DNA from: Shigella phage ChubbyThor
Sequence record: OL615013
Direction: 5' to 3' (one strand)
DNA length: 64,000 nucleotides
The position numbers and the translations under genes were made by a program. The notes beneath the pieces were generated by a model. It saw nothing but the letters and a program-made list of their open reading frames with translations. It was not told the DNA's origin and made no database searches. The first letter of the stretch is position 1. Each line of letters starts with the position of its first letter. This document shows positions 10,072-52,373 of the stretch, piece by piece.

Positions 10072-10089
10072 CGGGGTAATTATACCCCG
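10072..10089 (-). repeat. palindromic stem-loop element, family A copy 1 (CGGGGTAAT-TATACCCCG) in gp32 5' leader
   Basis: 7-bp stem cggggta/taccccg; same element recurs at ~45764 and ~46325. Confidence 0.6.
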
Positions 10090-17011: not shown

Positions 17012-17087
17012 GATATAGTTCCCGCTTTCAATTTGTGGCGAATGCCAATGAATTACTGGGAAGTATAAGCGCAGGGATTATAGAAGT

Positions 17088-17110
17088 AAAGCCCCTCATT
17101 GAGGGGCTTT
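17088..17110 (-). terminator. stem-loop (AAAGCCCCTCattGAGGGGCTTT), probable terminator of nrdH transcript
   Basis: 10-bp perfect stem between nrdH stop and next gene. Confidence 0.5.
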
Positions 17111-24516: not shown

Positions 24517-24546
24517 ATAATAGTGCATCATTATTGAAGAGTAAAG
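24517..24546 (-). promoter_or_regulatory. sigma70/T4-early-type promoter (TTTACT-17 nt-TATTAT) with AT-rich UP-like tract
   Basis: Minus-strand motif ~80 nt upstream of the 24443 start. Confidence 0.5.
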
Positions 24547-30315: not shown

Positions 30316-30389
30316 GATATAGTTCCTTCGTTTCAAGTTGGTGTCGTACTGCTTATGGAATGAAGTATAGGGAAGGATATTGAAGAAGT

Positions 30390-30410
30390 AAAGGGGCGAA
30401 AGCCCCTTTT
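30390..30410 (-). terminator. intercistronic hairpin/terminator (AGGGGCgaaaGCCCCT with flanking A/T runs)
   Basis: Between stop at 30423 and conserved leader of next gene. Confidence 0.5.
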
Positions 30411-43572: not shown

Positions 43573-43657
43573 GGTGATTCTCCTTATTTCATTGGATGAA
43601 ATGATAGGCGGCTCACCATGTTGAGTAAAGGGTTTCAATAAACTATCGTATTCAGAA

Positions 43658-44488
43658 TCATTGGAATTCAACTCCATACCTTTCAAGCCATTTATCACAA
43701 GTTAAAGGATCCCAACCATTATCTAACCTTCGAATAATCGGATTCACTTTAGCCCAGATCCCAGAAGAATTGGAACCGAATACTTCTTTAATGGCTTCTC
43801 CCTTGGTCTTACCTTTCAATATATGGTAATGTATGTGGGCTGCCCAACACCACCAATTATCCCTATCCGGAGTCCATCTTGGCTTCTCCCAAGGCATTTG
43901 CTCTCTGGAGGTTCTGGTAAAAGCCTCAACACGTTTCCTTTCTTGGTCCGATGTCAATTTATTGGTTAGGCTCTTTCCATAACAGTGATGGTGCTCTCCT
44001 CTCTTGACACCTGCATTTCTCTTCGCAAAGAATTGTTTCAGTTCAGGGTCTTCCTTGCGCTTGTCTTCATAGAATTTCAGCAGTGAATCTGAAGTTGCAT
44101 CTTTGGCTGCCTGAGACTTCTTTTTACCATACATCGGGTTGTTAGCCCCTCTGTTCTCTTCGGACAATCTCGCGGCGTATTTCTTACGCATTTTGGCGAA
44201 GAGATGTGAATTAACTCTGTGGCCATTCCTTCTCAGGATCATCAGCGCCTTTACCATACACGTATCCGGCAGCGCCAGAGCGAGACACACGTGAGCAATA
44301 TAGTGGACGCGGTGTGGTAATTTGATTAAATTGTTCTTATCTTTCTTGAATTGAGGAAATAGGGCGGCTGGAAGGATGTGGTGAAATTCTCCTTCCCCGT
44401 TGTAATCTGAATAGGCTGAAAGCAATTTCACATATTTGCCTACAAAGTGCGGTTTGCCACCTATTGTTAAAAGATATTCTCTTTTCAT
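43658..44488 (-). mobile_element. free-standing HNH homing endonuclease gene
   Basis: 276 aa; EFHHILPAALFP...HRVHYIAH HNH motif plus basic repeat region. Confidence 0.65.
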
Positions 44489-44946
44489 TTGTAGTGACTA
44501 TCACTGACCGTCCGGTACTTCACACCCTTGAACTGCTTGGCGACCTTGACGAACTCCATCGCTGGCATGCCCACTTTGTAGACCTTGATGCGCTGGCGGT
44601 CATCCATGTTCAGGGCGGCGACATAGCGGTGTGAGCCGTCGACCACATAGTTATCAGAAGACACCCAAACCCGACCCATGGGCTTCTTGTTTCTGATGTT
44701 CTTCATGATCTTCCAGACCTTCATCTTGTTGATTTCGTTCTGGGTGAGACGGAGCGATTTGATAGGAACCTGACCAGCGTCGATGGTGATGCCAAGTTCC
44801 TCCAAGTAGTCATGGAACGCCTGCTGCTTGTCATCGTCGATCTGTGGCATAGAAGAACGAGAAAGCCCGAGGTTTCCAACAGGAATCCTCAGGCCGTTGA
44901 TAATGTTCAACCAGTCTATGAAGGAAGACATGAACATGAGATTCAC
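44485..44946 (-). CDS. ParB/sulfiredoxin-fold nuclease-domain protein
   Basis: 153 aa; LRLTQNEINK and VVDGSHRYVAA (DGxHR-type motif). Confidence 0.4.
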   Translation of the reverse strand: MNLMFMSSFIDWLNIINGLRIPVGNLGLSRSSMPQIDDDKQQAFHDYLEELGITIDAGQVPIKSLRLTQNEINKMKVWKIMKNIRNKKPMGRVWVSSDNYVVDGSHRYVAALNMDDRQRIKVYKVGMPAMEFVKVAKQFKGVKYRTVSDSHYK

Positions 44947-45081: not shown

Positions 45082-45368
45082 CACACCTCGTCTTCTTCAG
45101 GTCCACCATCAATCAGGATACGAGCGGTGTCGAAACCTTCCCCGCCTGTGTTCAACAGCTTGGTCAGATCATCAAGGGTATCGACAGGACCAAGATCAGC
45201 CTTGCGCAGAATGAACTCGAGAAGGCCGTAGAGCGCTGTTTTGTACCGTTCACCGTCGATATCGTTTTTGACTTTCATTAAGTCAATAATCGCGTCTGTC
45301 TCCCTGAAACCTGTTTCAACTTCACTGCGCACCATAGAGAATAGAGCGAGTTCTTCGTCCCTTTTCAT
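45081..45368 (-). CDS. hypothetical acidic protein
   Basis: ORF track 95 aa. Confidence 0.4.
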   Translation of the reverse strand: MKRDEELALFSMVRSEVETGFRETDAIIDLMKVKNDIDGERYKTALYGLLEFILRKADLGPVDTLDDLTKLLNTGGEGFDTARILIDGGPEEDEV

Positions 45369-45739
45369 AACGTACCCCCAACAGAGATCATGAACTCTTC
45401 TTCAATGGTCGTGACAGGGCGGCGGTTGCGGGTTTCGATCATGAAGCCCCAGCCGCCGTCGGCGACGTTGCCAAAGGTCTTGACGCCAAAGGTCTTCTTC
45501 CCGTTGGAGCAGGCATAGAAGTCCAAGATGAACGGACTGCCCTGATTGTCGATCCCACGGTTTACACCATCCGCTACACAGCGCTCAATCATCTTCCCGT
45601 TCTTATACAGAACGAGGTCTTGACCATATGCCTTGAAAGCATAAACGCCGTTGGTAGACACTCCGGTGATGACAGGAGGAGCGGAAACAGCAGAGAAGGA
45701 AGCGCCCAGCAGGGCAACGGCGAGGATTAACTTTTTCAT
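45365..45739 (-). CDS. secreted protein (signal peptide), function unknown
   Basis: ORF track 45365..45931; start at MKKLILAVALLGASFSAVSA (~45739); conserved leader upstream. Confidence 0.5.
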   Translation of the reverse strand: MKKLILAVALLGASFSAVSAPPVITGVSTNGVYAFKAYGQDLVLYKNGKMIERCVADGVNRGIDNQGSPFILDFYACSNGKKTFGVKTFGNVADGGWGFMIETRNRRPVTTIEEEFMISVGGTL

Positions 45740-45763
45740 GATATAGTCTCTTGGTTTCAAATG
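45740..45763 (-). promoter_or_regulatory. conserved translation-initiation leader (TTTGAAACCAAGAGACTATATC-ATG)
   Basis: Member of a recurrent leader family seen also at ~17012, 30316, 41558, 46299, 46598. Confidence 0.55.
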
Positions 45764-45785
45764 GGCGGGGTAATCATACCCCGCC
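45764..45785 (-). repeat. palindromic stem-loop element family A copy 2 (GGCGGGGTAAT-CA-TACCCCGCC)
   Basis: 9-bp stem; near-identical to copies at ~10072 and ~46325. Confidence 0.65.
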
Positions 45786-45791
45786 GTGGGT

Positions 45792-46298
45792 TTATAGGGT
45801 AACAAGTGATACGGTAAAAACCATCGTCCCGTCTGTTGCCATTTTTCTTGAAACTGGTATGACGCGAGGCTGGCAGAATATCCATTCTTTCTCCATGGAC
45901 GCCAAGTCCAGCATATCCATTTCTGATTCATCGCCTTTGTTCACAAATTTTTCTAGAGAACCATAGACATTAAGCCCCTCCGGGAGTCCGTTTCGATGTT
46001 TGTAACAAATGCGGGCAACAGCTTTGGTTCCGTACGATTTAGAAAATTGTTTGGCCACATGCTTCAGTTCACTGAAGCTAAGACAAGAATCCCATGTCTG
46101 GAACATGTCGCCTCGTTCAAACAACATCTCTAAACGCGCAACGTCCTCCTTAGGCAGCCCGCGATAAAGTGTGGTCGTCTGTGGCTCGCGTAATTCTTGC
46201 ACCAGATCACGGACGGCAGGGGAAACAGTACCGGGGCGCATGATGTGGGACTTATCATGGGCGAGGTAAAATAAATCTTGAATTTGTTGATCGGTCAT
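45792..46298 (-). CDS. candidate mono-ADP-ribosyltransferase (R-S-E type), low confidence
   Basis: 169 aa (start MTDQQIQ); ordered motifs TTLYRG (aromatic-Arg), WDSCLSFS (STS-like), GDESEMD/MEKEWIF (ExE candidates). Confidence 0.3.
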   Translation of the reverse strand: MTDQQIQDLFYLAHDKSHIMRPGTVSPAVRDLVQELREPQTTTLYRGLPKEDVARLEMLFERGDMFQTWDSCLSFSELKHVAKQFSKSYGTKAVARICYKHRNGLPEGLNVYGSLEKFVNKGDESEMDMLDLASMEKEWIFCQPRVIPVSRKMATDGTMVFTVSLVTL

Positions 46299-46322
46299 GA
46301 TATAGTTCCTGCATTTCAAATA
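46299..46322 (-). promoter_or_regulatory. conserved translation-initiation leader (TTTGAAATGCAGGAACTATATC-ATG)
   Basis: Same leader family. Confidence 0.55.
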
Positions 46323-46324
46323 GA

Positions 46325-46342
46325 CGGGGTAATCATACCCCG
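46325..46342 (-). repeat. palindromic stem-loop element family A copy 3 (CGGGGTAAT-CA-TACCCCG)
   Basis: Identical core to copy 2. Confidence 0.65.
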
Positions 46343-46357
46343 CCCAAAGTTATAGAA

Positions 46358-46597
46358 TTAACTGATGTGCTTCAGAAGAGCGAAGAGGATCGCGGCCTTG
46401 GCTTTCACCTTGCCGACGACGCCTGTCTCAACATCGACTTCTTCAGCAACCCACTCTTTGCCCTTCTTGCTGATGATAACGTCACGGCGCTGGGCATATA
46501 CCTCTTTGGTCGCATACACACGACGGAACCCTTTAGCGCGGAGCAAGCCCCAATTGCGATCAATCTCTACTGAAGTTTCGACCATTTTGTTCTTCAT
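46358..46597 (-). CDS. hypothetical basic protein
   Basis: ORF track 79 aa; leader variant GTTGAAAGGTAAGATTATATC-ATG. Confidence 0.45.
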   Translation of the reverse strand: MKNKMVETSVEIDRNWGLLRAKGFRRVYATKEVYAQRRDVIISKKGKEWVAEEVDVETGVVGKVKAKAAILFALLKHIS

Positions 46598-46720
46598 GAT
46601 ATAATCTTACCTTTCAACCTGGTGAACCCCATCGTTCGCCAGTTATTGAATAATAGGATATTCCTTAGAGGAAGTAAACCCCTAAAAGTAAAAATCCCCA
46701 ACAAACGTTGGGGACTTCTG

Positions 46721-47047
46721 TTATTTGCGCAGGGCAACCACGAGTTCAGCGAGTTCGCCCATGGTAGGGTCATCGCCTTTACTACCCAGCCAGCCGTCGT
46801 CGATTTCGACCTGAAACTCTTCTTCGAGGTCCATTACAATTTCGATAGCGTCCAGTTCGTCGCCGCCGAGATCCTTCTTGGTGCGGAGACCAGCCAGCTT
46901 GTCCAGGGCATCGTTGATTACCACTTCGGCATCGACGATCCCTTTGATGCTACTCTTGTCCTCATCACTGACTTCCAGATTCAGATTGTCAGTGGCGTAC
47001 TGAGCCAGATGACGCATGACTTCAACATATGTTGGTTTACTGCTCAT
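46721..47047 (-). CDS. acyl-carrier-protein homolog lacking the phosphopantetheine-attachment Ser (GGDELD instead of GADSLD)
   Basis: 108 aa; ACP helix II signature KDLGGDELDAIEIVMDLEEEFQVEI; acidic. Confidence 0.6.
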   Translation of the reverse strand: MSSKPTYVEVMRHLAQYATDNLNLEVSDEDKSSIKGIVDAEVVINDALDKLAGLRTKKDLGGDELDAIEIVMDLEEEFQVEIDDGWLGSKGDDPTMGELAELVVALRK

Positions 47048-47089: not shown

Positions 47090-49294
47090 TTAGATTTTGA
47101 TCTCTTTCTCTGCCAGTTCGGCAGTGACCTTGTACTTCACGCCATCCACTTCAACTTCCATGGTTGACTCTTCCAGGTCGAGGTCGGTGAACCAGCCGTG
47201 GCCAGCAACGATACCATACACCACTTTAGACAGCGTCTTGTTCAAGGCGCGGACTTCAGTGATGGCCGCCTTGGCAGCAGCGTCGATCCAGTTTTCGATC
47301 AGCTGTTTCTGTACGGCTTCAGGCACGGCAGTGATCGCAGGAGACTTCACGAATGCTTCGTATTCCTTCAGAGCATTGGCGATGAACAAGTCACCCGCAT
47401 TGAGTTTCTTGTTCTCGGCAATCTTCTTCTGTACTGCCGCGATGCTAGGCAGAGAAGACGCTCCAGCGATCTTAACGTTCAGCTCACGGCTCATGTAGAC
47501 ATCCGTGGAGTCCTTCAGTTCGGTCTTCGGTGAGAAGCCGTAATCGCGGATGCCGTAGGAGGACAGGAACTCTGCCGCCTCAGCGCCGTACTGTACTGCC
47601 AGGCCTTTGGCGTTACCTTTGCCAACCAGTTCATCACGGAAGAACTTCAGCACCTTCTGCTTGCCTTTCAGGGCTTCCAGACGGACATTATCCGCAAAGA
47701 ACTGAGCAGCACTGATGTTCTTGACCATGGCGCGGTTGACCAGCGGTACGCTTTCCAGGTTCAGGACAAACACTTCCGGACCACCGAACACATGGACGCC
47801 CATCTGGCACAGATTGGTTACAACTTCAACATCAGCCCTGAACGGCAGAGTCTTCACGTTGATGATGCCGTCTTTGACGATGGTGTAGTTGCGCCACTGG
47901 AAAGTATCCAGTTCTTCAGGCAGACCGAACTTCTTCTGCACGAACTCCGGAATCGCCACAGTGCCGTGCTGGACAGTGCGTACACTGATATTAGGGCGTT
48001 CGGAGTTATAGACCAAATCGCTGATTGGCACAACACCCAGATCGTTGTTAGGTTCGAACGTCGGGTTCCACTCTTCGTGCTCGGCCAGCTTGAGAGCCAG
48101 GGCTTTGCGCTCTTCTTTGGACTCGGCGTTCGCGATCTGTTCTGCCAGCTTGTCTTCGGTATCGTCCAGTTTCTGAGCCGTACCGCGACCGATGCTCTTG
48201 TAGGAGAACATAGGATGTTTGGTAGCAACACACACGCCAGCTTCAGCCAGATACGTCAGCACGTCAACGACGGTCGTCGCATCTTCAGCTGGAACCAGGT
48301 CATAATCAATACCGTCAACGCCGCGCAGCTGGTCATCAACGATGGCCTGGGTCAGATCAACTTTGATGTTGGAGTAGTCCTGCTTGGTGAAGCAGTTGCT
48401 GTACTGTTTGATGAAGCGAACGTCACCCGTTTTCTTCAGGGCAGCCCACACCAGGTCTGCGTCCATGATGTGTACGCCGTAGAACGCCAGCACGTATGCC
48501 GCCTGGATGTCCGCCAGCGCATCAAGCTGGTCGATCATGTTAGGATTGACGACCCACAGCTTCGTGACGCTCTCAGGGATGCTCACGTGGCCGATAGGAT
48601 GGTCTTCATCCGGCTGTACCGCCAGCACAGTTGCTACGCCGTTTTCAACGTAGATGGCATGATCATACAGCAACGGAACATCAACAACCACTTTCGGCAC
48701 CGAGGACTTCAGTACGTTTTCCAGCTCGGTCTGATATTCGGTCTGGCCTTCGGCGAACACGTGAGTCGCGCCGGAACGTTCAGACATCAGAGCCAGCAGT
48801 TCGCGGTTACAGTACCAGCCGTATTCGATGAATGTGACGTTGTCGAAAGCGGAAGGAAGTTTTTCGGCGGTCTCCAGGATCTCATTGGAGCGCCAGCAGT
48901 TGTCATAACCATCGGTCATGAACGCCAGGTTGTTGACGTAGCCGGGTTTCTTCAGGTCACGCGCAGTATCCATCGCCAGTTTCAATGGTTCAACAAAACC
49001 AGTACAGCCGGATGGTTGTAGGAAGCGGTCGATCAGTTTGTTCAGCTCGCTCAGGTCAGATGCTGCACTAACCTGACGGCCAGCGAACACAGTACCAAAG
49101 TCGCCACGGGATGAGAAATACAGAACACTCACAGTATCTTCCGGTTTCACCAGAGAAGGCAGGTTCTCCTTCAGATGCTTACGGACTTCAGGGAGCGCAC
49201 GGTACATCGAATAAGAGATGTCCACAACGATTACATGGTTGGACGGGGCAGCAGTCGCAACCGCATTCTTAAATTCTAATGATTCAATCATCGT
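47090..49294 (-). CDS. von Willebrand factor A (vWA) domain protein, large
   Basis: ORF track 47090..49375; start MIESLEF; MIDAS motif VVDISYSM (DxSxS) near N-terminus; rest unassigned. Confidence 0.55.
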   Translation of the reverse strand, partial: TMIESLEFKNAVATAAPSNHVIVVDISYSMYRALPEVRKHLKENLPSLVKPEDTVSVLYFSSRGDFGTVFAGRQVSAASDLSELNKLIDRFLQPSGCTGFVEPLKLAMDTARDLKKPGYVNNLAFMTDGYDNCWRSNEILETAEKLPSAFDNVTFIEYGWYCNRELLALMSERSGATHVFAEGQTEYQTELENVLKSSVPKVVVDVPLLYDHAIYVENGVATVLAVQPDEDHPIGHVSIPESVTKLWVVNPNMIDQLDALADIQAAYVLAFYGVHIMDADLVWAALKKTGDVRFIKQYSNCFTKQDYSNIKVDLTQAIVDDQLRGVDGIDYDLVPAEDATTVVDVLTYLAEAGVCVATKHPMFSYKSIGRGTAQKLDDTEDKLAEQIANAESKEERKALALKLAEHEEWNPTFEPNNDLGVVPISDLVYNSERPNISVRTVQHGTVAIPEFVQKKFGLPEELDTFQWRNYTIVKDGIINVKTLPFRADVEVVTNLCQMGVHVFGGPEVFVLNLESVPLVNRAMVKNISAAQFFADNVRLEALKGKQKVLKFFRDELVGKGNAKGLAVQYGAEAAEFLSSYGIRDYGFSPKTELKDSTDVYMSRELNVKIAGASSLPSIAAVQKKIAENKKLNAGDLFIANALKEYEAFVKSPAITAVPEAVQKQLIENWIDAAAKAAITEVRALNKTLSKVVYGIVAGHGWFTDLDLEESTMEVEVDGVKYKVTAELAEKEIKI

Positions 49295-49857: not shown

Positions 49858-51522
49858 TCAGATTTGTGATGCCAGTTCTACTACGAGAGGAGCGGCACGG
49901 ACACGCGCATCTTCCAGAGTTTGAGTGTTGAAGAACTTGCCGTCACGATACACCAGCTGGTGCTGGTTGTCGGCGTCTTGCACCTGATCAAAGGTGATAC
50001 CGTCAACCAACACTAGTTTACCCTGAGAGTCTTTAATGACTTTAAGGAAACCACGCGCAGACTTTTTAGTCCCGCCTTTGTCGGTCTTCGGCTCTTTGAA
50101 GATCTCACGGAATTCGCCGTTCACCTTACCAGCCGTTGCTTTCACCGCCGTGCCAGTACTGTCACGGGTGTTCATCTGGTAGGTGTAGGAACCGATACCG
50201 AACACCACGTTGATGGAAGCGAAGTTCCGGCCAGCCAGACGACTAAAGATCTGGTCTTCACGTGCCAGGGTGATGGAGTCACCGTAGATCAGACCGATGT
50301 GTTCGTCCAACAGGAAGTGGCCAGTTTCAGTTTGAGTACCGCCAAAGATCTCCCACAGGCGCTGGATAGAGCCGACTGCTTCAGAACGGCTGATGATATT
50401 ACGGTCGTCTGCCATCAGAGAGTTGATCGTGCCTTCGCCTGTGATCAGGTGATAGGTGTTCGTCTCTTCGATGTGAATGACTTCAGTGCTGCTAGACACG
50501 CCGCTGATGTTCAGCGTGGCGCGGTCTTTGAACCCCTCAATGCGGTAGCCGCCGACGATATGAACTGGGTCGCCCGAGTCAGGGCGGATCACGACTTTAC
50601 CGTTACGCGCCATGATAATGTCTTTCAGGCGAGGGAGATAGTCGTCGATGACCTGCCAGTAATCCCACGCATCAGACACGATGCTGACGATGCCATCAGG
50701 ATACACGTCCTGCACCAGGCGGCGGAAGGTTTCGAATTCGCCATCCTTCGTACCCATACACATCACGGCGTGTTCGGTAGCCGCAACAGAACCAGCAACG
50801 ACATAGTCTTCGTCGATGTCTGCGCCATAATACTCTTCTACGAAGTCCAGGGCAGGGTTGGTATCGGTGCCTTTGAAGAACACCAGATGACCGGAACCGG
50901 AAGACGCCGCGTCATGCCATCCACTCATGCCACGGAAGGAGAAGTCGTGGCCTTGGTAGTCGATGAACCAATGGTCCGGCGACACGCCTGTAGCGAGGGC
51001 AGCTTTCACCATCAGTGCCTTGTAATGCAGGGCGATGGTGGCGTTCGTCATCGGCTTCCAGATCTCAGAGCTGAACACAGTCTCCAGATAGTTGGTCAGC
51101 CAGTAGAACTCCGGCAGGGTGTTGAACATCACATACACCGGAACGCCATATGGGCACATGGTGCCTTCAGGCAGAGCACGGACTTCGATAGGCAGGTAGC
51201 CGAGGTCATGCAGGGCTTCAATATGCTCTGTGCCGACGCGGCCTGGACCCAGGACTTTGTTCATGCGACGGGCATACTTCTTCAACACCTTGGCCTTTGG
51301 GCGCTGGAAGAATGCTTCGTCAAACAGTTCGTGGAACCAGGTCATGAAGCCCTGGATGCCCCAGACCACCACGCCGTTCTTCGGCAGGTGAGAGTTGAAC
51401 AGTTTGTTGGAGCGCGGAGTTCCGTTGGAGAACACCAGCTCGCTGCCTTCAGGGAACTGATAGATGTGCCCTGATTTGTAGAAGTCGATTGCATGGATTG
51501 GGTCTAAGTGGCGCATGCTCAT
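49858..51522 (-). CDS. nicotinamide phosphoribosyltransferase-family enzyme (NadV/Nampt-like; candidate nicotinamide ADP-ribose transferase of an NAD+ reconstitution pathway)
   Basis: 554 aa; Nampt blocks HDFSFRGMSG, GTDTNPALD, VVIRPDSGDP; 4-nt overlap with upstream Prs-like gene. Confidence 0.8.
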   Translation of the reverse strand: MSMRHLDPIHAIDFYKSGHIYQFPEGSELVFSNGTPRSNKLFNSHLPKNGVVVWGIQGFMTWFHELFDEAFFQRPKAKVLKKYARRMNKVLGPGRVGTEHIEALHDLGYLPIEVRALPEGTMCPYGVPVYVMFNTLPEFYWLTNYLETVFSSEIWKPMTNATIALHYKALMVKAALATGVSPDHWFIDYQGHDFSFRGMSGWHDAASSGSGHLVFFKGTDTNPALDFVEEYYGADIDEDYVVAGSVAATEHAVMCMGTKDGEFETFRRLVQDVYPDGIVSIVSDAWDYWQVIDDYLPRLKDIIMARNGKVVIRPDSGDPVHIVGGYRIEGFKDRATLNISGVSSSTEVIHIEETNTYHLITGEGTINSLMADDRNIISRSEAVGSIQRLWEIFGGTQTETGHFLLDEHIGLIYGDSITLAREDQIFSRLAGRNFASINVVFGIGSYTYQMNTRDSTGTAVKATAGKVNGEFREIFKEPKTDKGGTKKSARGFLKVIKDSQGKLVLVDGITFDQVQDADNQHQLVYRDGKFFNTQTLEDARVRAAPLVVELASQI

Positions 51523-52373
51523 TTTACACGTCCTGTATTTTCAGTTTTGAAAGGAAGACCGTCGGCGGTGATATTCTCCCACCAGACAGTGTCGGCATAC
51601 ACAGCATCGTAAATCCCGTCGAAAACAGAGAGACCTTTGCTGAAGATGCCATGGGTAACGAAGAGCGTCATGTGTTTGGGCTTGTGCTTCTGAAGCTCTT
51701 TGCCTAACTCAACGAACGTGCGCCCACCGTCGCAGATATCATCAACCACAACCAGATAGCGGTCTTTGATCAGTTCAGGGTTTGTAATGCTCACCCCAAT
51801 GATCTCACCAGTCTTGGTGTCACGGTTCTTGTGTCCGTAGACAACAGGAACACCATCCAGAGACAGGCTGAGGGCTTCGGTCTTCTTCGCCGCGCCACCG
51901 TCAGGGGCTACCAACACAGCATTGTTCCCACGGATGAACCAGCCCAGATACTGACGCACGATGTAATCTTGCGGGACAACATGGACGTTGTTGATCAGAG
52001 AAGTCACAACATGGCTGTGAGGGTCTTTGATCGCCACGCGGTCAAAGTTCATGCTATTGATGAACTCAGCCGCCCACTTCACAGACAGAGGCTCGCCGAA
52101 GTCGCAATGGCGGTCCTGGCGAGCATACGGGAAGTAAGGGATATACGCATGGAATGTCGTCAGACGATCCACGTTGCCCAGGCCACGCACGGCGTTTACC
52201 AGAAGCGCCAGCTCAATGAAGTCGGCTGATGATTTGATGTGAGCATCAATCACCACGTTCTGGACGTGACCGACAGGGATGCCAGCCTTTTGGATCTTGA
52301 TATGTTCCTCACCACCTGGGAAGGTGAAGTGCTTGTAGAACACATCTTGGTCGTTCAATTTCAAACGAAACAT
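51519..52373 (-). CDS. ribose-phosphate pyrophosphokinase-family enzyme (Prs-like; candidate ADP-ribose pyrophosphokinase)
   Basis: 284 aa; IPYFPYARQDRH (cf. IPYFGYARQDRR) and PRPP-binding loop VVVDDICDGGRT. Confidence 0.8.
   Translation of the reverse strand: MFRLKLNDQDVFYKHFTFPGGEEHIKIQKAGIPVGHVQNVVIDAHIKSSADFIELALLVNAVRGLGNVDRLTTFHAYIPYFPYARQDRHCDFGEPLSVKWAAEFINSMNFDRVAIKDPHSHVVTSLINNVHVVPQDYIVRQYLGWFIRGNNAVLVAPDGGAAKKTEALSLSLDGVPVVYGHKNRDTKTGEIIGVSITNPELIKDRYLVVVDDICDGGRTFVELGKELQKHKPKHMTLFVTHGIFSKGLSVFDGIYDAVYADTVWWENITADGLPFKTENTGRVK

Follow-up and report, generated by a model that had tools for sequence, protein, structure and literature searches.

The minus strand of a 64,000-nucleotide stretch of DNA from Shigella phage ChubbyThor (sequence record OL615013; the whole stretch is referred to here as the window) carries an open reading frame (ORF) at positions 45792-46298, which we assign with high confidence to the phage Mod family of ADP-ribosyltransferases (ARTs) and regard as having an intact active site. 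Our analysis further makes it likely that the product is an active protein mono-ART of the R-S-ExE clade that is used in the takeover of the host. The original prediction had called a small ART from short motifs, and this call was supported by a match to PHROG 832, by profile alignments to ModA and ModB of phage T4, by the ART fold of the predicted structure and by the conservation of the catalytic residues.

The ORF starts with an ATG at 46298 and ends with a stop codon at 45792-45794. Its 507 nt comprise 168 codons and the stop, and the product thus has 168 amino acids (aa); the 169 aa given originally included the stop codon. An alternative TTG start at 46319 would lead to a longer reading of 175 aa, but this was left without support because all homologues start at the methionine of the sequence M-T-D-Q-Q. 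The motif AGGA is located 8 nt upstream of the ATG. The premise of a T4-type phage turned out to be wrong, as the genome belongs to the genus Agtrevirus (Ackermannviridae): in the region of the window, the identity to Shigella phage MK-13, a member of that genus, amounts to about 97%, and that to other Ackermannviridae to 90-96%. The ART protein itself is 100% identical to MK-13 gp146 (YP_009882891.1), which is named 'hypothetical' in GenBank and 'RNA polymerase ADP-ribosylase' in RefSeq (NC_049455.1). Many Kuttervirus phages, among them CBA120, PhaxI and Det7, possess orthologues with 79-98% identity, which often bear the same RefSeq name. A second ART paralogue was not detected when all six-frame ORFs of at least 60 aa in the window were searched with hmmsearch, and a tblastn search of plasmids with the protein as query gave no match.

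Family membership and active site

The query matched PHROG 832 ('RNA polymerase ADP-ribosylase') with an expect value (E) of 7.8e-15, and both T4 ModA (E 1.7e-33) and T4 ModB (E 1.1e-41) are members of this group. Since the group includes ModB, which does not target RNA polymerase, its name has to be read as a family label and not as a call of the target. Word-indexed searches retrieved 16 relatives; an exhaustive profile search yielded 57 clusters (50% identity) at E<=1e-3, which consisted mostly of stand-alone proteins of 160-190 aa. Sixty-one of 71 family proteins were no longer than 230 aa. Precomputed matches to Pfam PF26816 ('Mod_ADP_RT') were present on the relatives P0003, P0006, P0013 and P0015, including one that is 79% identical to the query. 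When the thresholds of PF03496 and PF01129 were applied to distant relatives, P0013 fell short of the cutoff of 23.4 with its 22.7 bits and P0041 passed.

Profile alignments with hhalign connected the family to the T4 enzymes. A profile built from 17 sequences aligned to ModA with a probability of 94.5% (E 7.8e-8) and to ModB with 95.4% (E 1.8e-8). With a profile of 62 sequences, we obtained 97.7% (E 1.5e-12) for ModA over the full length, 99.1% (E 1.1e-18) for ModB, where residues 1-167 of the query were matched to residues 32-207, and 99.4% (E 3e-21) for a joint profile of ModA and ModB. In these alignments, the R-G, S-x-S/T and E-x-E motifs of the query were in register with those of both T4 proteins. 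T4 Alt, a capsid-packaged enzyme of 682 aa, reached only 0.4% (E 0.15) with the 17-sequence profile, that is, no significant match to Alt. An Alt-like identity was rejected on account of this result and because the query comprises only 168 aa and has no large N-terminal packaging region. Judged from its sequence, the protein is a Mod-type core that lacks the first ~31 residues of the T4 enzymes, and not an ART of the Alt/VIP2 type. It is a single-domain, stand-alone protein with neither a head-packaging domain nor a fusion to MuF or portal proteins, and its gene is surrounded by small accessory genes, whose PHROGs are of unknown function, and not by head genes. The absence of both a large N-terminal region and a head-packaging context makes it unlikely that the protein is injected together with the DNA. 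A fusion was seen elsewhere in the family: P0019 (763 aa) combines an N-terminal Mod-like ART domain (residues 10-146) with a type IB topoisomerase (PF01028, PF21338), an unusual architecture which hints at a DNA-associated role for some Mod relatives.

To count the conservation of individual residues, we used 62 stand-alone proteins of the family, the most diverged of which have about 27% identity (Table 1). The arginine, STS-like and ExE motifs named in the original prediction were recovered as Y45-R46-G47, S74-F75-S76 and E136-K137-E138, with conservation of R46, G47, S74, S/T76, E136 and E138 in 60-62 of the 62 proteins, which shows that these short motifs are not a product of chance. Residue E77 was kept in 59 of them. 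According to hhalign, R46-G47 corresponds to R73-G74 of ModB, within a motif that reads LYRG in ModB and LWRG in ModA; S74-F75-S76 is aligned to SFT in ModB and SAS in ModA, and the ExE segment to EQEW and EQEV, respectively. The distance between R46 and S74 is 28 residues, and that between S74 and E136 is 62 residues. A ModB variant with the exchanges R73A/G74A exhibited neither ADP-ribosylation nor RNAylation, i.e., attachment of NAD-capped RNA to proteins, and the R73A exchange is likewise described as inactivating (PMC10468400). Two candidate ExE segments had been proposed originally. The segment MEKEWIF, which contains E136 and E138, was upheld, whereas GDESEMD had to be discarded: its glutamates E124 (24/62) and E126 (15/62) are poorly kept and have positions other than that of the ExE in the alignments to ModA and ModB. 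As E124 and E126 are not conserved while E136 and E138 are, the true ExE is E136-K137-E138. Furthermore, we observed a family-specific N-terminal motif, H-D-K-x-H, which is as strongly conserved as the catalytic residues. Of its residues, only the lysine, K16, is matched in ModA and ModB in the full-length hhalign alignments.

Table 1 Positions of the ART gene, its conserved motifs and neighbouring sequence elements in the window
Feature	Position	Strand	Evidence or remarks
Gene for the Mod-type ADP-ribosyltransferase (168 aa), with stop codon	45792..46298	-	MK-13 identity, PHROG 832, ART fold
H14-D-K16-S-H18, family-specific N-terminal motif	46245..46259	-	H14 60/62, K16 61/62, H18 55/62
Y45-R46-G47, NAD-binding arginine motif (T-L-Y-R-G), first core strand	46158..46166	-	R46 61/62, G47 62/62
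S74-F75-S76, S-x-S/T ('STS') motif, second core strand	46071..46079	-	S74 60/62, S/T76 62/62
E136-K137-E138, catalytic ExE, start of core strand	45885..45893	-	E136 60/62, E138 61/62, W139 59/62
Upstream intergenic cassette: hairpin 46321-46346, ATTTGAAA, AGGA, ACTATATC, then ATG	46299..46357	-	-18.8 kcal/mol, z -3.4
Downstream intergenic cassette, second repeat copy, hairpin 45764-45785	45740..45791	-	-19.6 kcal/mol, z -4.5
Candidate sigma-70-type promoter, TTTACT-N17-TATTAT	46650..46678	-	Consensus scan; nearest upstream candidate

The structure predicted by AlphaFold2 from the 17-sequence alignment had a predicted local distance difference test score (pLDDT) of 88.5 and a predicted template modelling score (pTM) of 0.85. 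R46, S74 and E138 were located on the model strands 44-47, 73-76 and 138-141, respectively. A Foldseek search against the PDB returned 43 matches at E<=1e-3, all of which were ARTs of the C3, iota and ExoS kind. HopU1 (E 2e-6) was the top match, and C3 exoenzymes, ExoS/T, Tre1, iota toxin and Plx2a came next. In the BFVD, a library of viral structure models, the nearest non-orthologous neighbour was a model of ModB from Serratia phage CBH8 (E 1.4e-10, template modelling score (TM) 0.69) and the next one a model of ModA from Shigella phage Sf22 (E 3.8e-10, TM 0.69). Both were closer to the query than any bacterial toxin (TM about 0.55). A fold unlike that of an ART, which was named originally as an outcome that would speak against the call, did not emerge from the confident model, and the predicted structure is in agreement with the fold of the R-S-E clade mono-ADP-ribosyltransferases, a split beta-sandwich core with an NAD+ cleft.

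Comparison with characterised enzymes revealed both common and distinct traits. T4 ModB (207 aa) is an arginine-specific mono-ART that also RNAylates rS1 and rL2. Like ModB, the query is a single-domain R-S-ExE ART of PHROG 832 with LYRG, SF[ST] and E-x-E-W motifs in register, neither protein possesses a capsid-targeting domain, and the two are structural neighbours. Unlike ModB, it is 39 residues shorter, lacks the residues equivalent to ModB 1-31, shares only about 18% identity, contains its own conserved H-D-K-x-H motif and originates from a phage of the Ackermannviridae, not the Straboviridae. The known targets of ModB are rS1, EF-Tu and trigger factor. T4 ModA (200 aa), which ADP-ribosylates Arg265 of the RNA polymerase alpha subunit, has the fold class, the motifs and PHROG 832 in common with the query, and the RefSeq name of the MK-13 orthologue is the product name of ModA in the T4 record. 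However, the match to ModA is weaker than that to ModB, and ModA contains E-Q-E-V where the query has E-x-E-W. We consider the RNA polymerase alpha subunit a possible but rather doubtful candidate for the actual target. The bacterial C3-like exoenzymes, HopU1 and Tre1 are secreted toxins or toxins of type VI secretion systems that differ from the query in structure (TM ~0.5-0.57) and share only 10-18% identity with it. C3 carries an asparagine-specific QxE in place of ExE, and the query, unlike these toxins, has no secretion signal and is not accompanied by an immunity gene.

Genomic context of the ART gene

On either side of the ART gene lies a copy of a 50-nt direct repeat (D1). The copies (46295-46344 and 45736-45785) are 86% identical and separated by 559 nt from start to start. 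In both of them, a strong hairpin precedes ATTTGAAA, a ribosome-binding site and ACTATATC-ATG. The downstream cassette precedes the next gene, which encodes a protein of 124 aa (45365-45739). In phage Ag3 (segment L003, positions 1774-1832), the two flanking genes are adjacent, with one cassette between them and no ART. The left flank of the Ag3 cassette matches the 5' junction and its right flank the 3' junction in the window, and its hairpin exhibits a compensatory change from G-C to A-T. Because Ag3 has a single cassette and no ART, the ART gene together with one cassette can be described as a precise 559-bp indel. No other gene is present in this indel, which argues against a toxin-immunity pair. 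A Tre1/Tri1-like arrangement was thus rejected, given that the ART gene is the sole gene in the indel and that neither an immunity gene nor an ADP-ribosylhydrolase gene is co-inherited. The hairpin cassette appears to mediate the gain or loss of the ART gene. Hairpin cassettes of this kind resemble promoter-stem-loop cassettes for which a role in the shuffling of genes has been proposed in T4-type phages. A scan did not flag the flanking hairpins as classical intrinsic terminators, since a T-run is absent. Far from the ART locus, at 10073-10088, the hairpin core was noticed a third time (GGGGTAATTATACCCC, with one mismatch); the sequence around this copy is not that of the cassette.

The candidate promoter listed in Table 1 precedes a 79-aa ORF (46358-46597), which in turn is followed by the ART gene. 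Five copies of the general motif TTTACT-N16-18-TATNMT are present in the window, all of them on the minus (coding) strand, compared to 0.04 expected copies, and these sigma-70-like motifs probably represent promoters of the phage that are recognised by the host RNA polymerase (early promoters). From this sequence pattern, we infer that the ART gene is transcribed by the host RNA polymerase. Early-type expression appears most likely because domains for packaging or capsid targeting are absent from the protein and a sigma-70-like candidate promoter lies upstream among small accessory genes. Apart from the copy upstream of the ART gene, the motif is found at 17062-17090, 24517-24545, 30364-30392 and 43601-43629; in the three copies inspected (17062, 30364 and 46650), a G-rich run or a G+C hairpin is located just upstream. 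The start context ACTATATC-ATG is found seven times, again only on the minus strand and compared to 0.7 expected copies (17009, 30313, 41555, 45737, 46296, 46595 and 56153), with a TTGAAA element about 15-20 nt upstream in most cases. This context is a conserved signature of the 5'-untranslated region or of translation initiation in a subset of genes.

The original prediction had also pointed to the proximity of an NAD+ (nicotinamide adenine dinucleotide) module. This module is encoded on the minus strand by 49858-51522 (NAPRTase family) and 51519-52373 (PRPS-like), which together have the NARP1 architecture of Namat and Adps; the supplementary tables of the NARP1 paper list the MK-13 proteins as Adps and Adps-associated Namat. 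While the distance between the ART gene and the pair (49858-52373) was confirmed to be short, about 3.6 kb, the implied link was not supported by comparison with other phages, where the two are not inherited together. In PhaxI, the ART gene is present at the syntenic site, and the 9 kb to either side of it contain neither Adps nor Namat. The ART is absent from Ag3, which contains a single coding sequence annotated as NAMPT (L006, 3362-5005), which represents a deletion-fusion of Adps (1-222) and Namat (227-554), so that NARP1 is probably broken in this phage. ART homologues from Erwinia jumbo phages and metagenomes have genes for replication and neck proteins as their neighbours, and NAD genes are missing from their vicinity. 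Since both elements vary independently, their proximity is no evidence of a functional link, and a functional or inherited coupling of the ART to the NAD+ module was rejected as unsupported.

Further genes of the minus strand in this part of the window encode a protein of 153 aa whose match to ParB-like proteins is weak (44485-44946; PHROG 1033, E 2.6e-4), a homologue of phage acyl carrier proteins (46721-47047) and a 733-aa protein with a VWA domain (47090-49291). An ORF at 43658-44488 on the same strand encodes a homing-endonuclease-like protein of 276 aa (NUMOD3; PHROG 655/HNH). For most of this ORF (~43898-44517), megablast retrieved neither MK-13 nor another phage record, and the ORF is probably a lineage-specific insertion of a mobile endonuclease.

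Proposed mechanism and rival explanations

By analogy to the established chemistry of R-S-E ARTs, NAD+ would be held in a cleft formed by R46 on strand 1 and S74 on strand 2. E138 is expected to promote the departure of nicotinamide and to stabilise the oxocarbenium-like transition state, while E136, the first glutamate of the ExE, would steer the guanidinium group of a target arginine onto C1'', so that arginine would be the favoured acceptor and an Arg-ADP-ribosylated host protein the product. The enzyme would most likely be synthesised after infection from early-type transcripts made by the host RNA polymerase, in analogy to ModA and ModB in T4, and could help to reprogramme host proteins of transcription or translation early after infection.

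Several observations speak against such an active host-takeover enzyme. With the query, Pfam-A gave no match even at E<=10 in the local copy, which is older than PF26816, and the gathering thresholds of PF03496 (ADPrib_exo_Tox) and PF01129 (ART) were not reached; NCBIfam returned only a chance match to a Tn3 transposase (E 0.25), and a phmmer search of PDB sequences yielded no relative, with citrate synthase at E 1.1 as the only match. The protein shares only about 18-20% identity with ModA and ModB and lacks the first ~31 residues of both T4 enzymes, so that target recognition may differ from theirs. The segment just before the ExE (residues 124-136) was modelled as a helix, which may or may not act like the target-recognition (ARTT) loop of C3-type ARTs. 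In addition, both the promoter and the early timing were predicted from consensus matches, and the ART has to be regarded as accessory because close relatives such as Ag3 do without it. Our literature search found no biochemical or experimental work on the protein or any orthologue; likewise, searches for ARTs of Ackermannviridae, CBA120 or Kuttervirus, for temporal transcriptomes and for 'Mod_ADP_RT' returned nothing relevant. The missing matches in the local Pfam-A and in NCBIfam, as well as the dispensability in Ag3, would also be expected from a chance resemblance of motifs or from an inactive remnant of the ART fold with a structural or binding role. Nevertheless, we regard this explanation as highly improbable: the profile and fold matches are strong, and every catalytic residue is kept in at least 97% of the 62 diverged relatives, down to 27% identity, whereas inactive ART folds usually lose these residues.

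A more specific version of the proposed host-takeover role would be a ModB-like RNAylating enzyme, whose main substrate is NAD-capped RNA that becomes attached to ribosomal or translation proteins of the host. This activity is established for ModB (PMC10468400), and the present family has several traits that point to ModB: the family profile scores it above ModA (hhalign scores of 111 vs 76, with the E values given above), its model is the best named neighbour in the BFVD, and the E-Q/K-E-W signature is common to both. On the other hand, the identity to ModB is low, its N-terminal 31 residues are missing, and the determinants that allow ModB, but not ModA or Alt, to use NAD-RNA are stated to be unknown (PMC10468400), so that proximity in sequence has no predictive value for RNAylation. 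We consider RNAylation as the main activity unlikely. We assign somewhat less credence to a counter-defence ART or NADase that would modify an immunity or toxin protein of the host or would act together with the neighbouring NARP1 pair. T4 Alt has been reported to ADP-ribosylate MazF. The ART gene, an accessory cassette, lies in a hyperplastic region together with NARP1, whose listing for MK-13 was mentioned above, and, as is typical of arms-race genes, the distribution of the ART is patchy (present in 77 records, compared to 275 with a match to the region). However, the ART and NARP1 dissociate in PhaxI and Ag3, the homologues from Erwinia jumbo phages and metagenomes have no NAD genes nearby, and an ART consumes NAD+ without yielding free ADP-ribose, the substrate of NARP1. 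An ART directed at nucleic acids, which would modify DNA or RNA bases or ends instead of protein arginines, seems very improbable to us. We hold a composite scenario to be similarly doubtful to the counter-defence role. In that scenario, a minimal Mod core of 168 aa with its own H-D-K-x-H motif moves as a 559-bp hairpin-bounded cassette, acts on a substrate unlike those of ModA and ModB (NAD-capped RNA, a nucleic-acid end or an NAD+-depleting effector of host defence) and cooperates with NARP1 where both are present. The assignment as an ART that modifies host proteins remained our preferred explanation.

Implications for phage biology

The identification of the protein is already contained in public resources, namely in the RefSeq product name, in PHROG 832 and, for its relatives, in Pfam PF26816, and a survey of viral NAD+ and ADP-ribose functions counted the 'Mod family of the RSE clade' among the ARTs that are most common in phages (PMC9503650). 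Our analysis therefore contributes a confirmation and corrections, which concern the real ExE, the strand, the length of the protein, the phage family and the lack of a linkage to the NAD+ module; in addition, the database name 'RNA polymerase ADP-ribosylase' should not be taken to assign a target. If active, the enzyme would be the counterpart in Ackermannviridae of the T4 ARTs for host takeover. As Kuttervirus and Agtrevirus phages are in wide use against Salmonella, E. coli O157 and Shigella, both for biocontrol and in therapy, the identity of the host protein that is modified would be useful to know. Moreover, the minimal Mod core of 168 aa could help to define what distinguishes RNAylation of the ModB type from plain ADP-ribosylation.

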